Source of the DNA: Candidatus Sacchlamyda saccharinae
GTDB taxonomy: Bacteria; Chlamydiota; Chlamydiia; Chlamydiales; Rhabdochlamydiaceae
Assembly (NCBI GenBank): GCA_030408505.1
Contig: JAUHQI010000002.1
Span: forward strand, 34,674-98,673
Direction: 5' to 3'
DNA length: 64,000 bases
Position 1 is the stretch's first letter. The number at the start of each line of letters is the position of its first letter. A program made the translations under genes and the position numbers. Positions 41,858 to 46,427 of this stretch are shown here, piece by piece. The notes below the pieces were generated by a model. It had not been told where the DNA came from and made no database searches. It saw only the letters and a program-made list of their open reading frames with translations.

Positions 41858-43137
41858 AGACAACTTTCCACCCGATGAAGTGGGCCATCTGGGCTCTAGC
41901 TGCATTTTTCTACTTTTACGAGTATTTCTTGCGGGTAGCGCCCAGTGTAATGGTCCCAGAACTCATGAGCGCTTTTTCAGTCAATGCCACAGCCATTGGC
42001 GCTCTTTCCGCTTTTTATTTTTATATCTATGCCCCAATGCAACTCCCTGTTGGCGTATTGACAGACAAATATGGAGCGAGAAAACTTCTTGCTTTTGCCT
42101 CTGCAAGCGCAGGGCTTGGAGCGGTTTTGTTTGCTATTGCGACAAATTTCTGGGTGGCAGCGCTTGGCCGCATCTTGATGGGTGGCGCATCGGCATTTGG
42201 GTTCATTGGTCTTGTCTATATCTGCTCACACTGGTTTCCAGAAAATAAGAGAGGAATTCTAATAGGTCTTGGAAGCTCAATCGGAATGGTTGGCGCCGTC
42301 ATGGGCGAGGGTCCACTTCGCAAGCTAATCGATATTTTTGGATGGCGCTCTGCGAATCTCCAACTGGGAATTTTAGGACTGGTGATCGGAGCGATCATTT
42401 ATATTGTCGTGCGTAATGATCCACCAGAGATGGTGAAATATGACGAGAAGATGAAAAAAACTCCGCCTGCGCACATTCTCGAGAATTTGGGGATTGTTTG
42501 TAAGAATGGATACTCTTGGGTCATCGCTCTCTTGAGTCTTTTCATTATGCTTGCCACTCCTGGATTTGCTGGGCTTTGGGGCATCCCTTTTATCCATGCA
42601 ACATATGGGATCTCAATAGAACTTGCGGGCTACGCTGTTTCGATGATCTTTATCGGATGGGCAGTTGGTGGCCCTGTAATTGGGAAACTTTCTGACCACT
42701 TAGAACAAAAAAAACCTCTTTTGATTTTCTCATCTCTCCTGGGCGCGCTTTTGATGGCAGCTATTGTCTATGTCCCCAACTTGCCCCTTTTTGGATTATT
42801 TATCCTCTTCTTCTTTTTGGGTTTTGTCTCTGGTGCCCAACTTCTCACCTATAGCTACGCCATCGACATCAACCCAGAAAAAGTCAAAGCAACCGCTGCT
42901 GCGTTTACCAACTTCATCACTTATGTGGGCGGGGCACTTGTCCAACCTTTTGTCGGGTTTTTGCTCGACGCCAACTGGACAGGTAAGATGGAAAATGGGA
43001 TCCGAATCTATTCCCCAGATGCCTATAAAATTGCCCTGACCTGCTTTCCAGCCGCATTTCTTATCTCTGCGATTTTAGGAATATTCTTAAAAAAATCCCC
43101 GCATCCCAAAACAATTTGGCAGAAGTATTTTTCATGA
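41854..43137 (+). CDS. MFS transporter
   Basis: 427 aa with about 12 TM helices and an MFS loop motif (LTDKYGARK). GTG start overlaps the upstream stop. Confidence 0.8.
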   Translation: MKTTFHPMKWAIWALAAFFYFYEYFLRVAPSVMVPELMSAFSVNATAIGALSAFYFYIYAPMQLPVGVLTDKYGARKLLAFASASAGLGAVLFAIATNFWVAALGRILMGGASAFGFIGLVYICSHWFPENKRGILIGLGSSIGMVGAVMGEGPLRKLIDIFGWRSANLQLGILGLVIGAIIYIVVRNDPPEMVKYDEKMKKTPPAHILENLGIVCKNGYSWVIALLSLFIMLATPGFAGLWGIPFIHATYGISIELAGYAVSMIFIGWAVGGPVIGKLSDHLEQKKPLLIFSSLLGALLMAAIVYVPNLPLFGLFILFFFLGFVSGAQLLTYSYAIDINPEKVKATAAAFTNFITYVGGALVQPFVGFLLDANWTGKMENGIRIYSPDAYKIALTCFPAAFLISAILGIFLKKSPHPKTIWQKYFS

Positions 43138-44090
43138 GAGCGATGGTTCTAGAAGAGGCAAATAAGCCTCTAACAATGCAAGATCTTCTCCTCCCTTCCC
43201 CTGGAGAAGGTGAAGTGCTCATCAAGGTCAAAGCTTGTAGTGTTTGCCGCACAGATCTACATATTTATGCTGGCGAGCTAAAAGAGCCCAAACTTCCGCT
43301 GATCATGGGTCATCAGATTGTTGGAACTATAGAGGGAGAAGATTCACTTGTGGGTGTACCTTGGCTTGGGAAAACTTGTGGAGTTTGCCCTTACTGCAAA
43401 AGAGACGAAGAAAACTTATGTGATGACCCCACATTTACCGGATATACGATCAACGGCGGCTTTGCTGAGTACGTAGTGGCAAACAAAGCGTTTGTCTTCC
43501 CCATTCCAGATGGCTACTCAGAGATCCAAGCAGCTCCCCTTCTCTGTGCTGGGATGATTGGGTACCGCTCACTCAAGATGGTAGAGACGGCAGAAAAAAT
43601 CGGCTTCTATGGTTTTGGGGCCGCAGCGCATCTTTTGATCCAAGTAGCAAAATACCAGGGTAAACAGGTCTATGCCTTCACGCGCAAGGGCGATACTAAA
43701 ACACAGGAAAAAGCCTTAGAGCTCGGAGCTGTATGGGCGGGCGATTCTGAGACCAAGGCTCCCGATGAGCTCGATGCAGCCATTCTCTTTGCACCAGTGG
43801 GCTCTCTTGTGCCAACAGCTCTAAGAGCGGTCCGCAAAGGGGGCATTGTCGTCTCAGCTGGAATTCATATGAGCGATATCCCTAGCTTCCCCTACTCGAT
43901 TCTCTGGGGAGAGCGCGTTCTTCGTTCTGTGGCTAATCTCACTAGAAAAGATGGGGAGGAATTTTTAGCCTTAGCCCCTAAAATCCCCATTCAAACAGAG
44001 GTCACGACCTACCCTTTAGAAAAGGCCAATGAGGCACTTCGTGATCTAAAAGAAGGAAACATTTCTGGCTCTGCAGTGATTATTCCTTAG
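43134..44090 (+). CDS. Zinc-binding alcohol dehydrogenase family protein
   Basis: GHQIVGT catalytic-zinc region, structural-zinc Cys cluster CGVCPYCKRDEENLC, and Rossmann GFGAAAH. ATGA overlap with the MFS gene. Confidence 0.85.
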   Translation: MRAMVLEEANKPLTMQDLLLPSPGEGEVLIKVKACSVCRTDLHIYAGELKEPKLPLIMGHQIVGTIEGEDSLVGVPWLGKTCGVCPYCKRDEENLCDDPTFTGYTINGGFAEYVVANKAFVFPIPDGYSEIQAAPLLCAGMIGYRSLKMVETAEKIGFYGFGAAAHLLIQVAKYQGKQVYAFTRKGDTKTQEKALELGAVWAGDSETKAPDELDAAILFAPVGSLVPTALRAVRKGGIVVSAGIHMSDIPSFPYSILWGERVLRSVANLTRKDGEEFLALAPKIPIQTEVTTYPLEKANEALRDLKEGNISGSAVIIP

Positions 44091-45861
44091 AGAAATTCCC
44101 CGTCTTTGCATCGACGAGTTTGAGAAGGTCTTCTGATTTCATGGCGATCTGCTCTTGTGAGAGTCCACAATTGAAAACGACATTGGGATGCTCAAGCACT
44201 TTTTCATCGAAATAGGTTTCGAGATTCAAGAGATTCCCAAAGGGGGGTACCCCTCCGATGATCAGACCAAACCGCTCTTTGATAACAGCAGGGTCTTCAA
44301 ATTCGCATTTCTCTCCGACTGCCGCCGCAATGGCTTTCATATCCATTTTTAAGTGGACAGGGAGGTTGAACTGGTAATTTTTCTTCGTCTTTTTCCCTTT
44401 TAAAATGAGCGCTTTGATGCCACCTTCAGATGACTCCTCTCCATCCACGATATGCTCAAATTCCATGTCGTGTTGGTTTAGAAGGCGGATAATTTCATTG
44501 CGGATGTTCTCACCGCCGAAGACGATATTGGCTTTGATCCGATTGCCCGCAATGCGTTTGGGGTCAGAGGGGAAAAGAGATGCTTCGCGGATATTCTTTA
44601 AGCCGAGCATCGTCATGGTCAGACGTTCGAGCCCCATCCCGAAACCGCCATGGGGAGGCATGCCGTATTTAAATACGGTCAAATAATCCTGAAAATTCTC
44701 AGGATCCATCCCCTTAGACTCAATGCCAGCGACCATATCCTCATAGGTATGGCACCTCTGTCCGCCGGAGGTGATTTCCACCCCATTACAAAGTAGATCG
44801 AACGTGTTTGTAAGTTCTGGATTCTTCTCATTCACAAATGAGTAGAAGGGGCGCTTTTCTTTTTTCCAGTCAGTGATAAAAATGAGATCTGTGCCGTGCT
44901 CTTCTTTTGCATATTTACAAAGCTCCCGCTCAGCAGATGGGCTTAGGTCGGGCTCATTTCGCTCGTCTACGCCTGTTCGCTTGAAATAGAGCTCTTGTGC
45001 TTCTTCAAAGGTGACTCTAGGAATCGAAACGTCTTTTGGGCATTGAATCCAATTGGATCCTAAAGTTTCTAGTTCTTGTTTGCAGTGGGTTTGCACATGA
45101 TCTGTAATGGCCTTGATGCACCCTTCTTGAACATCGAGAACATCGTGCCAATGGTCAAAAAAGCCCATCTCAAACTCAAACTGCTTGCCTTCTGACAAAT
45201 GCCGGGGCGTATGGGAGGGTTCCGCTCGGAAAAAGGGCATCAGAGCAAAGACCCGCTCGTTGACCCCTACCATGATCTGTTTGTAAAGTTGAGAGCTCTG
45301 CGCAAGCGTTGCCGTGTAACCAAAATAGTCGACATTGAAAAATTCAGCGCCCCCTTCAGATGAGGCTCCCAGAATGTTGGGAGCAAAATACTCTTTAGCC
45401 TCCACAACATCGTGCATGTATAGACGGAAAGCATGGACCATCTCTGCCTGAACATTAAACACTGCCTGGATCTTTTGATTGCGAAGAGCAATAGAGCGGT
45501 GATCAAGGATAAATTCTAAATCGGAAGGGATTTCGGGCTTGTAGTACTCAATTGGAGGTGGCTCACTCACTGCCACCTCAACTTCAATCTTTGGCTCTAA
45601 TACTTCTACGCCAAGCCCCGCTTGCTCAGATTTGACCGGCTTGCCCTCGACAGAGAGAACACTCCCTGGAAACAGTCCGGCCAGTTTTTTAGCGTCTTCT
45701 TTATCTTCAACAATGACCTGAGCAAACCCTGTCCGATCACGGAGAATCAAAAAATTGAGTTTACCAAGCGAGCGGAAGGAAACGAGCCAACCTCGAAGCA
45801 AAACGCGGTTGTTTTCATGGGAGAGAAGTTGTGAAGAAAGGATCCGATTCATAGAGGCCAA
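44080..45861 (-). CDS. aspS: Archaeal/eukaryal-type aspartate--tRNA ligase fused to a C-terminal YbaK/ProX-like deacylase domain
   Basis: OB-fold N-terminus, class II motif 2 FRAEPSHTPRHLSE, SGGQRCH, and motif 3 GMPPHGGFGMGLERL. About 150 extra C-terminal residues follow, containing GLIIGGVPPFGN (a YbaK-family GG(V/I)(S/P)P(F/L)G-type motif). Confidence 0.8.
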   Translation of the reverse strand: MASMNRILSSQLLSHENNRVLLRGWLVSFRSLGKLNFLILRDRTGFAQVIVEDKEDAKKLAGLFPGSVLSVEGKPVKSEQAGLGVEVLEPKIEVEVAVSEPPPIEYYKPEIPSDLEFILDHRSIALRNQKIQAVFNVQAEMVHAFRLYMHDVVEAKEYFAPNILGASSEGGAEFFNVDYFGYTATLAQSSQLYKQIMVGVNERVFALMPFFRAEPSHTPRHLSEGKQFEFEMGFFDHWHDVLDVQEGCIKAITDHVQTHCKQELETLGSNWIQCPKDVSIPRVTFEEAQELYFKRTGVDERNEPDLSPSAERELCKYAKEEHGTDLIFITDWKKEKRPFYSFVNEKNPELTNTFDLLCNGVEITSGGQRCHTYEDMVAGIESKGMDPENFQDYLTVFKYGMPPHGGFGMGLERLTMTMLGLKNIREASLFPSDPKRIAGNRIKANIVFGGENIRNEIIRLLNQHDMEFEHIVDGEESSEGGIKALILKGKKTKKNYQFNLPVHLKMDMKAIAAAVGEKCEFEDPAVIKERFGLIIGGVPPFGNLLNLETYFDEKVLEHPNVVFNCGLSQEQIAMKSEDLLKLVDAKTGNFSKE

Positions 45862-45881: not shown

Positions 45882-46427
45882 CTATTCAATCTTGATTCCA
45901 AGACCATTTAATAGAGATAGCGCTTCTGGACTCGAAAACCTCGCTCCTTTCAAAGAATTATTTAATGGGTCAATCGCATAGCGGATGGCGCCAATAAAAT
46001 TGGCTTTGTCTAATTTCGTGTTATGAAAAAGACTCCCCTCCAAATCCGATTTTTCAAAATTCCCCTGCTCCAGATTCGATTGGACAAAATGGCACTCTCT
46101 TAGGTTGCATTCGATGAATTTCGCCGCCTTGAGCCTAAGCTCTGTGAAATTACATCCACGTAGCAAACATTTTTGAAAACCAATCTCAAAAAATCGAGAG
46201 TCGCAGAGGGTAAAATCAATCCCCATCAATTTTGACTCGCTAAAAAAAACATCTTGAAAACGGGTCCCATCGAGTATTGTCGCGACGAAATTGCACTTTT
46301 CAAATCGACAATCCTGAAAAACTTTGCCCCTAAAATCTGCTTCTGAAAAATCACATGAGATGAAGCTGCAATCAATATAGCTCTCATCTTCTAACTTCTG
46401 GATTTTTTCAAACTCTTCTGATTCCAT
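45882..46427 (-). CDS. Pentapeptide-repeat protein
   Basis: 181 aa of A(D/N)LXX-type tandem pentapeptides (CDFSEADFRGKVFQDCRFEKCNF...). Confidence 0.85.
   Translation of the reverse strand: MESEEFEKIQKLEDESYIDCSFISCDFSEADFRGKVFQDCRFEKCNFVATILDGTRFQDVFFSESKLMGIDFTLCDSRFFEIGFQKCLLRGCNFTELRLKAAKFIECNLRECHFVQSNLEQGNFEKSDLEGSLFHNTKLDKANFIGAIRYAIDPLNNSLKGARFSSPEALSLLNGLGIKIE

Follow-up and report, generated by a model that had tools for sequence, protein, structure and literature searches.

An archaeal-type aspartyl-tRNA synthetase (AspRS) encoded within the window (i.e., the whole 64,000-nucleotide stretch of DNA analysed here) carries at its C-terminus an apparently active aminoacyl-tRNA deacylase domain of the INS/YbaK superfamily, and the synthetase and its tail together probably, though by no means certainly, constitute an AspRS-dedicated post-transfer editing module. 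The fusion is genuine and no artefact, because the in-frame joining of the two parts is conserved across relatives; a literature search found no published description of an AspRS-INS fusion, in agreement with an earlier sequence-only reading, which had taken the arrangement to be undescribed. A conserved, apparently catalytic deacylase on AspRS suggests that the decoding of Asp and Asn faces a fidelity problem so far unrecognised, because hundreds of environmental chlamydiae have the arrangement, many of them with no other AspRS, and because it is accompanied by independent fusions to bacterial-type AspRS elsewhere. It bears, moreover, on how mistranslation is avoided in organisms that possess both routes to Asn-tRNAAsn, and it provides a functional handle on an uncharacterised, 3OP6-like branch of the INS superfamily.

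The synthetase and its C-terminal domain

The interval 44080..45861 is a single uninterrupted open reading frame on the minus strand, while its plus-strand translation contains stop codons. The open reading frame proposed by the sequence-only reading is thus real, but its strand, which had been left unstated, is minus, and its start is moved to the ATG at 45852. Counted from an in-frame TTG further upstream, at 45861, the protein would have 593 residues, and from the ATG 590; the latter is likely the true start because homologues begin with MNRIL or MKRIL and because the database entry (P0002) has 590 residues. The coding sequence, termed here aspS-edit, accordingly spans 44080..45852 (minus strand, as are all features below), with its stop codon at 44080-44082. 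Residue numbering throughout is that of the 593-residue form.

Residues 4-437 are an archaeal-type class IIb AspRS, which matches the NCBIfam aspartate--tRNA(Asn) ligase model NF003483 with 467.1 bits (cut-off 353) over model positions 3-436 of 438. This region consists of an N-terminal OB-fold anticodon-binding domain (residues 20-93; 45583..45804; Pfam tRNA_anti-codon, PF01336, 1.5e-11), which aligns to 1n9w, 3nel and 1b8a, and of a class IIb catalytic core (residues 116-433; 44563..45516; tRNA-synt_2, PF00152, 2.1e-72) without a GAD insertion, a Pfam scan of the window's protein having returned no match to PF02938. The canonical AspRS C-terminal motif FPSDPKR (430-436) and a linker, IAGNRIKANIV (437-447), follow at 44521..44574 (alignment A1). 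All of the motifs named in the sequence-only reading are present, namely, FRAEPSHTPRHLSE (motif 2), SGGQRCH, GMPPHGGFGMGLERL, LFPSDPKR and GLIIGGVPPFGN; motif 3 reads GFGMGLERL, and AQSSQLYKQ (from residue 188) replaces the usual QSPQ. QSSQ is found in the window's AspRS and in all 80 of the chlamydial fusions compared with it; QSPQ is kept in all aligned solved AspRS structures and in the fused AspRS from outside the chlamydiae. As a common mark of editing-requiring AspRS, QSSQ was therefore rejected: it belongs to the chlamydial clade only.

The solved structure closest to the core is that of Thermus thermophilus AspRS2 (1n9w/3kfu; 3.9e-99 over residues 6-437). V27 and G82 of the window's enzyme align with W26 and K85 of P. 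kodakaraensis, which we take to be the residues that make an archaeal-type AspRS discriminating and both of which are replaced here; T. thermophilus AspRS2, a non-discriminating enzyme, has H and P at these positions.

The tail (residues ~448-593; 44083..44520) matches Pfam tRNA_edit (PF04073) over residues 478-582 at 4.7e-18 (65.9 bits; cut-off 25.5). This search had been set beforehand as the test on which the proposal of an archaeal-type AspRS with a C-terminal YbaK-superfamily deacylase would stand or fall, and both halves of that proposal hold. An AF2 model of the tail alone (pLDDT 90, pTM 0.85) is matched by Foldseek with probability 1.00 and TM scores of 0.72-0.79 to 1dbu, 2dxa, 2cx5, 1vki, 3op6 and 1wdv; as modelled, the tail is a complete INS/YbaK-superfamily deacylase fold. 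Its K483, the conserved catalytic lysine (44413..44415, within GIKALIL), and its GXXXP loop, G536-G-V-P-P540 (44242..44256, within GGVPPFG), are invariant across both the 26 full-length proteins of alignment A1 and the 33 tails of alignment A2, as are P539, F541 and G542. A catalytic lysine and a GXXXP loop, both strictly conserved, have been described together with their roles for the INS superfamily (PMC11286415), and their conservation here suggests that the tail is apparently an active deacylase. Both alignments also reveal a basic patch, GKxxKKNYQFN, that is invariant within the chlamydial clade. The AF2 model of the full-length protein is unusable for placing the tail or for tracing a cis path of the CCA end, because its pTM is 0.54 and its pLDDT falls below 50 across the linker region (423-448).

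Distribution of the fusion and affinities of the tail

The tail matches 1092 database proteins, the top 120 of which all have the same three-domain layout, and at least 233 species genomes of environmental Chlamydiota encode a relative, with the best 80 matches each extending over the full length. In a sample of 120 Chlamydiota genomes, all 27 archaeal-type AspRS genes are fused to the tail (the corresponding genomes are termed here the fusion genomes); the arrangement is thus widespread and not peculiar to this gene. When 1.84 billion representatives were searched exhaustively by profile, the tail clade turned up C-terminal to three kinds of AspRS--archaeal-type, bacterial with GAD and bacterial without GAD--in about 20 clusters (50% identity), and was fused to no other synthetase. 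The tail is thus shown to be coupled strictly to AspRS and not to prolyl-tRNA synthetase (ProRS). In a tree of the domain, fused forms are interspersed with free-standing ones, with at least three label changes involving bacterial-type and at least six involving archaeal-type AspRS on well-supported branches; judging from this tree, the tail clade is a mostly free-standing one that was joined to AspRS repeatedly. In five gene contexts examined for free-standing members, aspS, gat and asnS were not adjacent.

The sequence-only reading had called the tail YbaK-like, which holds at the level of the superfamily but not below it: the tail fails the YbaK equivalog models TIGR00011 (47.8 vs 153 bits) and NF007951 (35.2 vs 243 bits), and profile comparisons and trees place it within a clade related to YeaK (ProXp-ST1) and 3OP6 and not within YbaK proper. 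Among characterised members of the superfamily, E. coli YeaK gives the best profile match (hhalign, 2.1e-15, 25% identity over 151 columns), that to YbaK being weaker (1.3e-10). AspRS-fused domains, YeaK and 3OP6 fall into one clade that is split from YbaK and ProXp-x with 98/99 support; within it the branch leading to YeaK has a length of 2.1, which leaves the exact position of YeaK unsure. Chlamydial free-standing homologues match 3OP6 at 1e-35. Other chlamydial proteins, which resemble 2CX5 (5e-34 to 2cx5), form a separate clade outside that of the fused tails (100/98; 98/99); membership of the tail in ProXp-x (TTHA1699, 2CX5) was rejected, inasmuch as the 2CX5-like proteins branch apart in both trees. 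The 3OP6-like branch possibly corresponds to one of ProXp-7, -8 or -9, which were reportedly defined in a 2020 review.

The fused AspRS is the only one in this genome: a second, bacterial-type aspS, which the sequence-only reading had proposed to look for, is absent. It is likewise the sole AspRS in 16 of the 27 fusion genomes; the other 11 also keep a bacterial-type AspRS, a combination of bacterial-type and archaeal-type enzymes that occurs in Thermus and Deinococcus as well (PMC4206432). The earlier premise that chlamydiae make Asn-tRNA by transamidation only, and hence that their AspRS must be non-discriminating, did not survive: this genome, which encodes GatB, also encodes a genuine AsnRS (669 bits vs a cut-off of 414), as do 93 of the 120 Chlamydiota in the sample, among them every one of the 27 fusion genomes and nearly all genomes outside the Chlamydiaceae. 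Transamidation as the only route holds only for the Chlamydia-like family. Presence of the fusion is not associated with that of AsnRS, a comparison that is uninformative since 93 of 120 genomes and all fusion genomes have AsnRS; nor is it associated with the asparagine synthetase AsnB (7/27 vs 26/93).

A proposed editing role and its alternatives

As an AspRS-dedicated editing module, the protein would divide its labour: the AspRS body would select the tRNA, while the tail--a predicted hydrolytically competent INS-superfamily domain joined to the AspRS C-terminus by a linker of about 10 residues--would carry out hydrolysis. The tail would then act post-transfer on aminoacylated tRNAAsp and/or tRNAAsn that its own AspRS has made or holds bound. 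The acceptor ends of the two tRNAs differ: tRNAAsn has U1-A72 and tRNAAsp has G1-C72. About the same likelihood attaches to two candidate substrates: (a) Asp-tRNAAsn that has escaped GatCAB, which would be recognised via U1-A72; and (b) tRNAAsp mischarged with a small non-cognate amino acid, such as Ser or Thr, as analogy with YeaK suggests. Should the enzyme be non-discriminating and supply GatCAB, hydrolysis of Asp-tRNAAsn would amount to a futile cycle. It would also look counterproductive in the 11 genomes with two AspRS.

A more far-reaching proposal, which we regard as rather unlikely, is that the tail clade polices the Asp/Asn boundary through the identity of the tRNA and not of the amino acid, with, for example, Asp-tRNAAsn (U1-A72) that escapes GatCAB being hydrolysed and Asp-tRNAAsp (G1-C72) being spared, so that AspRS would be a proofreading synthetase in these lineages. 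If so, a non-discriminating AspRS could be kept beside AsnRS, and the tail would be the first case of an editing domain in class IIb. We know of no documented need for editing by AspRS, class IIb synthetases being treated, to our knowledge, as requiring no hydrolytic editing.

The tail may instead be a general trans-editing factor for other synthetases (in the manner of YeaK/ProXp-ST1 or of YbaK/ProXp-ala), its tether to AspRS serving co-expression, dimerisation or stability; its substrates might then be, for example, Ala- or Cys-tRNAPro from a type I ProRS without an INS domain or Ser/Thr-mischarged tRNAs. The composition of this genome fits such a role, in that the tail is its only PF04073/INS-family domain and its ProRS is of type I and lacks INS; type I ProRS occurs, moreover, in 25 of the 27 fusion genomes, most of the clade is free-standing, YeaK, the nearest of its characterised members, is broad in tRNA specificity, and domains appended to other INS members raise their dimerisation and tRNA affinity (PMC9425024, PMC11286415). 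Nevertheless, we judge this explanation unlikely. Among the 79 genomes of the phylum sample with an INS-less type I ProRS, 42 lack any INS-family domain, so that such a factor is dispensable there; two fusion genomes (G065 and G109) already have a ProRS with its own INS domain, and several others also encode free ProXp-x-like or 3OP6-like proteins. Nor does random tethering predict that the partner, on three non-orthologous backbones, is always AspRS. A PDB sequence search with the tail yielded no match at E <= 1 to the ProXp-ala structures 5vxb, 1vjf and 1vki, to which the similarity is at the level of the fold only. A narrower version, in which the tail stands in for the missing INS domain of ProRS, was rejected as the leading explanation on the same genome counts together with the fact that the tail follows AspRS type in 27 of 27 cases; more generally, a ProRS-directed role is unlikely because the tail tracks AspRS type and not ProRS type.

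It is quite improbable, but of direct relevance to the window's own copy, that the tail in this lineage is a decaying remnant, inactive or heading for loss, while the editing function of the family persists elsewhere. The copy has suffered an in-frame, lineage-specific deletion of 13 residues between S478 and E479 (44427..44428), as is seen in alignment A1, in tail lengths and by hhalign; among 81 sequences, a deletion of this kind (13-16 residues) is limited to the window's copy and to L012, its nearest relative. What is lost is a helix, TPTSEDSARVRGTxLE, that lies ahead of the catalytic lysine; 79 of the 80 relatives compared possess it, and E. coli YeaK conserves it (...CEAVSEIRGTALGQG...). 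With it go H, S and R positions conserved at >=95%, among them the RGT motif that the family has in common with YeaK, and positions 37-44 of the tail model form a loop where the helix is expected. In L012 the glycine of GXXXP is gone as well, as are the N and C of FNCG, and tail/core divergence is the highest of the 81, which hints at a relaxed need for the tail in the window's lineage. The window's tail, however, evolves at a rate normal for the family (tail/core divergence ratio of 1.22, the mean for the family being 1.24; rank 41 of 81), keeps 46 of the 51 columns conserved at >=95%, retains both K483 and the GXXXP loop in an intact reading frame, and is confidently predicted to adopt a complete YbaK-type fold (pLDDT 90). 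Across the family, mean column identity is 71% in the tail alignment and 78% in the full-length alignment, and these comparisons of sequences show purifying selection on the tail to be comparable to that on the core. Through the loss of the helix, the specificity or activity of the window's tail may differ from that of the canonical family.

Finally, that the tail is non-hydrolytic in vivo--a module for tRNA acceptor-end binding, product retention or assembly that would, for example, hold Asp-tRNAAsn until it passes to GatCAB within a transamidosome-like particle, or shield Asp-tRNA--is likewise quite improbable: although the core is closest to a transamidosome component (T. thermophilus AspRS2), product retention by a non-discriminating AspRS is a known safeguard (PMC3367201), the basic GKxxKKNYQFN patch is invariant in the chlamydial clade, and one bacterial-type fusion (L113) lies near gatC, mere binding would not need an invariant catalytic lysine and GXXXP loop, gatB and aspS are unlinked in this genome (C4 vs C2), and there is no sign of contact with GatCAB.

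Comparison with known systems

The synthetase part most closely resembles T. thermophilus AspRS2 (1n9w; transamidosome 3kfu), which is likewise an archaeal-type AspRS in a bacterium, has no GAD domain, and has neither Trp nor Lys at the discrimination positions. That enzyme, however, lacks a deacylase domain, its 422 residues stopping at the canonical C-terminus; the chlamydial fused enzymes differ from it further in having QSSQ instead of QSPQ, and the window's enzyme in being the sole AspRS of its genome.

Three free-standing relatives of the tail are instructive. YeaK shares with it the motifs HE...(I/V)RGT.L..G.KAL, PPF, FN[AC]G and P.L.NF, but is a single-domain Ser/Thr-tRNA deacylase, not covalently joined to a synthetase as the tail is to AspRS, and possesses the RGT-containing helix that the window's copy is missing. 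YbaK, a Cys-tRNAPro deacylase (1dbu, 2dxa), shares the fold (TM 0.73-0.75) and is the best raw PDB sequence match to the tail (6.5e-9), yet it lies outside the tail clade in the tree (98/99 branch). 3OP6 (Legionella pneumophila lpg1207) belongs to the same large clade and has the motifs PPFGNL...Y.D...V.FNAG...P...D, but is a free-standing, uncharacterised INS-family protein on which a literature search found no published study.

The nearest functional parallels are the INS domain of ProRS and the ProXp-ala-ProRS fusions of Plasmodium and Trypanosoma, in which an INS deacylase within a class II synthetase clears that enzyme's own errors and which have in common with the tail the catalytic lysine and the GXXXP loop (PMC11286415). 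A 2024 review includes no AspRS fusion in its list and describes the INS families other than that of ProRS as single-domain (PMC11295145). The ProRS INS domain is structurally more distant from the tail (Foldseek TM ~0.6) than are the free-standing members (~0.75), and in the ProRS systems the deacylase is inserted into, or N-terminal to, a class IIa enzyme, whereas here it is C-terminal to a class IIb AspRS.

The fused gene and its distribution

The AspRS-deacylase fusion occupies a single open reading frame (ORF) at 44080-45861 of the window, as the sequence-only reading had proposed, but on the minus strand, where it encodes 593 aa when counted from a TTG at 45861; plus-strand translation of the same interval has stops throughout. 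The likely start also moves: because an ATG is present at 45852, homologues open with MNRIL/MKRIL and the database copy has 590 aa, the true CDS is most likely 44080-45852. In the 593-aa numbering, Pfam matches delimit an OB-fold anticodon-binding domain (residues 20-93), a class II D/K/N core (residues 116-433; 2e-72) and a tRNA_edit domain (PF04073, residues 478-582; 4.7e-18), and over residues 4-437 the protein scores 467 (cut-off 353) against the NCBIfam equivalog model of archaeal-type aspartate--tRNA(Asn) ligase. The earlier call of an archaeal-type AspRS with a YbaK-superfamily tail is thus borne out and, because the PF04073 match obtained in the domain search suggested there is well over threshold, the possibility that the extension has no YbaK-family hit falls away.

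An ORF of 324 aa resembling zinc-type alcohol dehydrogenases (window 43116-44090, plus strand) converges on aspS, and the two share 11 nt (44080-44090) at the 3' end of aspS. On the other side, the gene for a 181-aa pentapeptide-repeat protein (window 45882-46427, minus strand; PF13599 5e-24, PF00805 2e-20) is possibly co-transcribed with aspS, as it lies on the same strand and ends 29 nt upstream of the ATG; a weak sigma-70-like site overlaps the gap between the two.

The alternative that two separate genes, or an assembly artefact, underlie this layout is excluded at the family level by comparison of relatives. The tail used as query retrieved 1092 proteins, the best 120 of which all combine OB fold, core and tRNA_edit in ~600 aa; as a stand-alone query it matches essentially only fragments of AspRS fusions. 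Among GTDB contigs (one genome per species) relatives occur at 233 loci, the best 80 of them full-length, nearly all labelled in their records as environmental Chlamydiota--Parachlamydiaceae, Rhabdochlamydiaceae, Simkania and unclassified MAGs--with a few evidently mislabelled. The survey of chlamydial AspRS extensions that had been recommended gave a uniform result: an archaeal-type AspRS is present in 27 of 120 Chlamydiota genomes, in all 27 within a frame of at least 583 aa, and no unfused archaeal-type AspRS was seen among the 120. In one fusion genome (G073; locus L101, G073:C1:140500-146500) tRNA_edit is matched again, more weakly (34 bits), directly downstream of the fused aspS, in a 392-aa frame broken by one TAG, with a 303-aa ORF at that place; this may represent either a decayed copy of the fused domain or another gene.

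The tail within the INS superfamily

The canonical AspRS ending, LFPSDPKR (429-436), is followed by a linker of ~10 residues and then by a helix, FGGENIRNEIIRLL, which is the first element of the YbaK-type fold. In alignments of 26 full-length proteins and of 33 tails, the invariant positions include K483 (in GIKALIL), the GXXXP loop (G536xxxP540) and two family-specific motifs, EKCEFE and FNCG; in the INS superfamily this lysine is the catalytic residue, the role of the GXXXP loop being likewise described (PMC11286415). The predicted model of the tail alone is confident (pLDDT 90, pTM 0.85) and resembles free-standing INS-family structures, every one of which it matched (TM 0.72-0.79), as well as the INS domain of ProRS (TM ~0.6). 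For the full-length protein the prediction is poor (pTM 0.54) and the linker of low confidence, so that inter-domain geometry is not readable from it. By its residues and predicted model, then, the tail has kept its deacylase fold and catalytic residues intact, and its pattern of conservation marks it as under strong constraint. Some tail relatives have tandem INS-type domains, two or three per protein (P0255, 448 aa; P0263, 491 aa; P0343, 303 aa), and the N-terminal part of P0343 is itself INS-like.

The label 'YbaK-like' is valid at the superfamily level only. YbaK equivalogs (NCBIfam) score far under their cut-offs on the fusion protein, and raw PDB sequence matches of the tail are weak (E. 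coli YbaK 6.5e-9; TTHA1699 8.7e-7), ProXp-ala giving none. Free-standing INS proteins in Chlamydiota are of two main kinds, 2CX5-like (5e-34) and 3OP6/lpg1207-like (1e-35), the 2CX5 type being ProXp-x according to a 2024 review (PMC11295145). An exhaustive profile search returned 2583 matches, many of them free-standing ~160-aa proteins with the tail's motifs. In maximum-likelihood trees one clade unites the fused tails with the free ~160-aa proteins, the 3OP6 group and the long-branched E. coli YeaK; this clade stands apart from YbaK, YbaK-like and ProXp-x proteins (support 100/98 and 98/99), and profile comparison likewise favours YeaK (2.1e-15) over YbaK (1.3e-10). On these comparisons YeaK/ProXp-ST1, a deacylase of Ser/Thr-tRNA, is the closest of the characterised enzymes.

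Nearly all fetched relatives of the window's tail share with YeaK a motif segment that the window's copy lacks. Tail length is 167-175 residues in 79 of 80 fetched relatives, 157 in the window and 153 in its nearest relative, L012; a stretch that immediately precedes the catalytic Lys, 'TPTSEDSARVRGTxLE', aligns with …CEAVSEIRGTALGQG of E. coli YeaK and is missing only from the window and L012. In the window's gene the deletion amounts to 39 nt. The window's domain is probably still under selection, since, the deletion aside, its tail looks ordinary: the tail/core divergence ratio is 1.22 (family mean 1.24; 41st of 81), and 46 of 51 highly conserved columns are retained. In specificity or activity it may depart from the canonical family. 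The L012 tail (L012 7306-7764) is the fastest-evolving of the 81; its GXXXP glycine is gone (VMAVPPFG), as are the N and the C of FNCG (FPSG), and editing function in that lineage may be decaying.

An exclusive and recurrent partnership with AspRS

In the exhaustive profile search, every strong tail match bearing an N-terminal extension was an AspRS, no other synthetase being found fused to the tail clade among those strong matches. The backbone may be an archaeal-type AspRS (P0220, P0227, P0331, P0301 and fragments), a bacterial-type AspRS with the GAD insertion domain (P0257, 748 aa; P0279/P0364, 744 aa; P0254, P0264, P0262, P0325, P0293) or a bacterial-type AspRS without it (P0223, P0245); one bacterial-type fusion (L113) comes from a non-chlamydial MAG and lies near gatC. 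Tails fused to the two types interleave with free forms in the domain tree, where well-supported branches force at least three label changes for bacterial-type fusions and at least six for archaeal-type ones. The tail has therefore joined or left AspRS repeatedly, on backbones that are not orthologous. The partnership is both exclusive and recurrent.

All 80 chlamydial fusions (L010-L089) have an active-site-adjacent P-to-S change, QSSQ for QSPQ, within AQSSQLYKQ (window 45298-45324, residues 180-188 region). QSPQ is found in all solved AspRS aligned and in non-chlamydial fused AspRS; because the latter lack the change, it is a lead only.

Genome context, candidate substrates and known systems

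The host genome (1.73 Mb) encodes GatB and four class IIb paralogues: the fusion, AsnRS, LysRS and EpmA. A check for a second, bacterial-type aspS came back empty, the fusion being the only AspRS; AsnB is likewise absent. The argument that chlamydiae lack AsnRS, so that their AspRS is necessarily non-discriminating, fails here: AsnRS is genuine in this genome (669 bits; cut-off 414), and 93 of the 120 Chlamydiota sampled encode one, every one of the 27 fusion genomes among them, which confines the argument to the Chlamydia-like family. Across the 120 genomes, AsnB is about as frequent with the fusion as without it (7/27 vs 26/93), so the two are not associated. The fusion enzyme may be non-discriminating: the closest solved relative of its core is T. 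thermophilus AspRS2, and V27 and G82 align with P. kodakaraensis W26 and K85, which Feng et al. and Charron et al. are said to have found, in 2003, to confer AspRS discrimination. In 16 of the 27 fusion genomes it is the sole AspRS and so must make Asp-tRNAAsp.

The LysRS of this genome (G000:C4, L001 1486-3774, minus strand, outside the window; 762 aa) has an N-terminal extension of ~250 residues with a B3_4 domain (PF03483, 1.4e-25), followed by a complete class II LysRS (NF001756, 610 bits). The PheRS-beta editing domain has the B3/4 fold, as does CtdA, a free-standing deacylase of canavanyl-tRNA, so two class IIb synthetases here carry appended editing-type domains. A term search of the CtdA family paper (PMC12449066) found no mention of LysRS, fusions or chlamydiae. 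Downstream of asnS, a large ORF (C2; L003 2540-4000, minus strand) shows by eye a lanthionine-synthetase/dehydratase-type C-terminal resemblance.

With moderate confidence, we read the tail as an AspRS-dedicated editing domain. It would act on aminoacyl-tRNA made on, or bound by, AspRS, whose body would supply tRNA selection as ProRS does for YbaK, which works with ProRS and tRNA in a ternary complex (PMC11286415). Any particular substrate is proposed with low confidence. One candidate is Asp-tRNAAsn, which would fit the Asp/Asn context, with hydrolysis keyed on U1-A72: GatCAB tells tRNAAsn from tRNAAsp by an acceptor-stem feature and, since the acceptor ends differ here (tRNAAsn U1-A72/G73; tRNAAsp G1-C72/G73), a deacylase could use that cue too; an enzyme that feeds GatCAB would, however, run a futile cycle by such hydrolysis. 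Another is a small non-cognate amino acid on tRNAAsp, as kinship with YeaK would suggest, although to our knowledge no AspRS error of that sort is documented. The host ProRS belongs to type I and lacks INS, and the genome has no PF04073 domain other than the fused tail; that the tail substitutes for the ProRS INS is rejected as the main reading, because among the 79 type I ProRS genomes of the 120 sampled, 25 have the fusion, 12 only a free-standing INS protein and 42 no INS-family domain, while in two fusion genomes (G065, G109) the ProRS is bacterial and itself carries an INS domain, and several others additionally encode ProXp-x-like or 3OP6-like proteins. The tail therefore tracks AspRS type, not ProRS type, and by these counts type I ProRS in Chlamydiota can do without an INS-family editor.

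The fusion is already in databases, named simply aspartate--tRNA(Asn) ligase; a literature search found no paper describing or testing an AspRS-INS architecture. According to the 2024 review (PMC11295145), the INS superfamily outside the ProRS domain consists of single-domain proteins, ProRS fusions and a plant C-terminal domain being the only exceptions it mentions; an AspRS-dedicated tail would place an editing module of INS type on a class of synthetase for which editing is not known. The 11 of 27 fusion genomes, mostly larger, that also keep a bacterial-type AspRS match the Thermus/Deinococcus arrangement of AspRS1 with an archaeal-type ND-AspRS2, a pattern that a 2014 survey placed only in Deinococcus-Thermus (PMC4206432).
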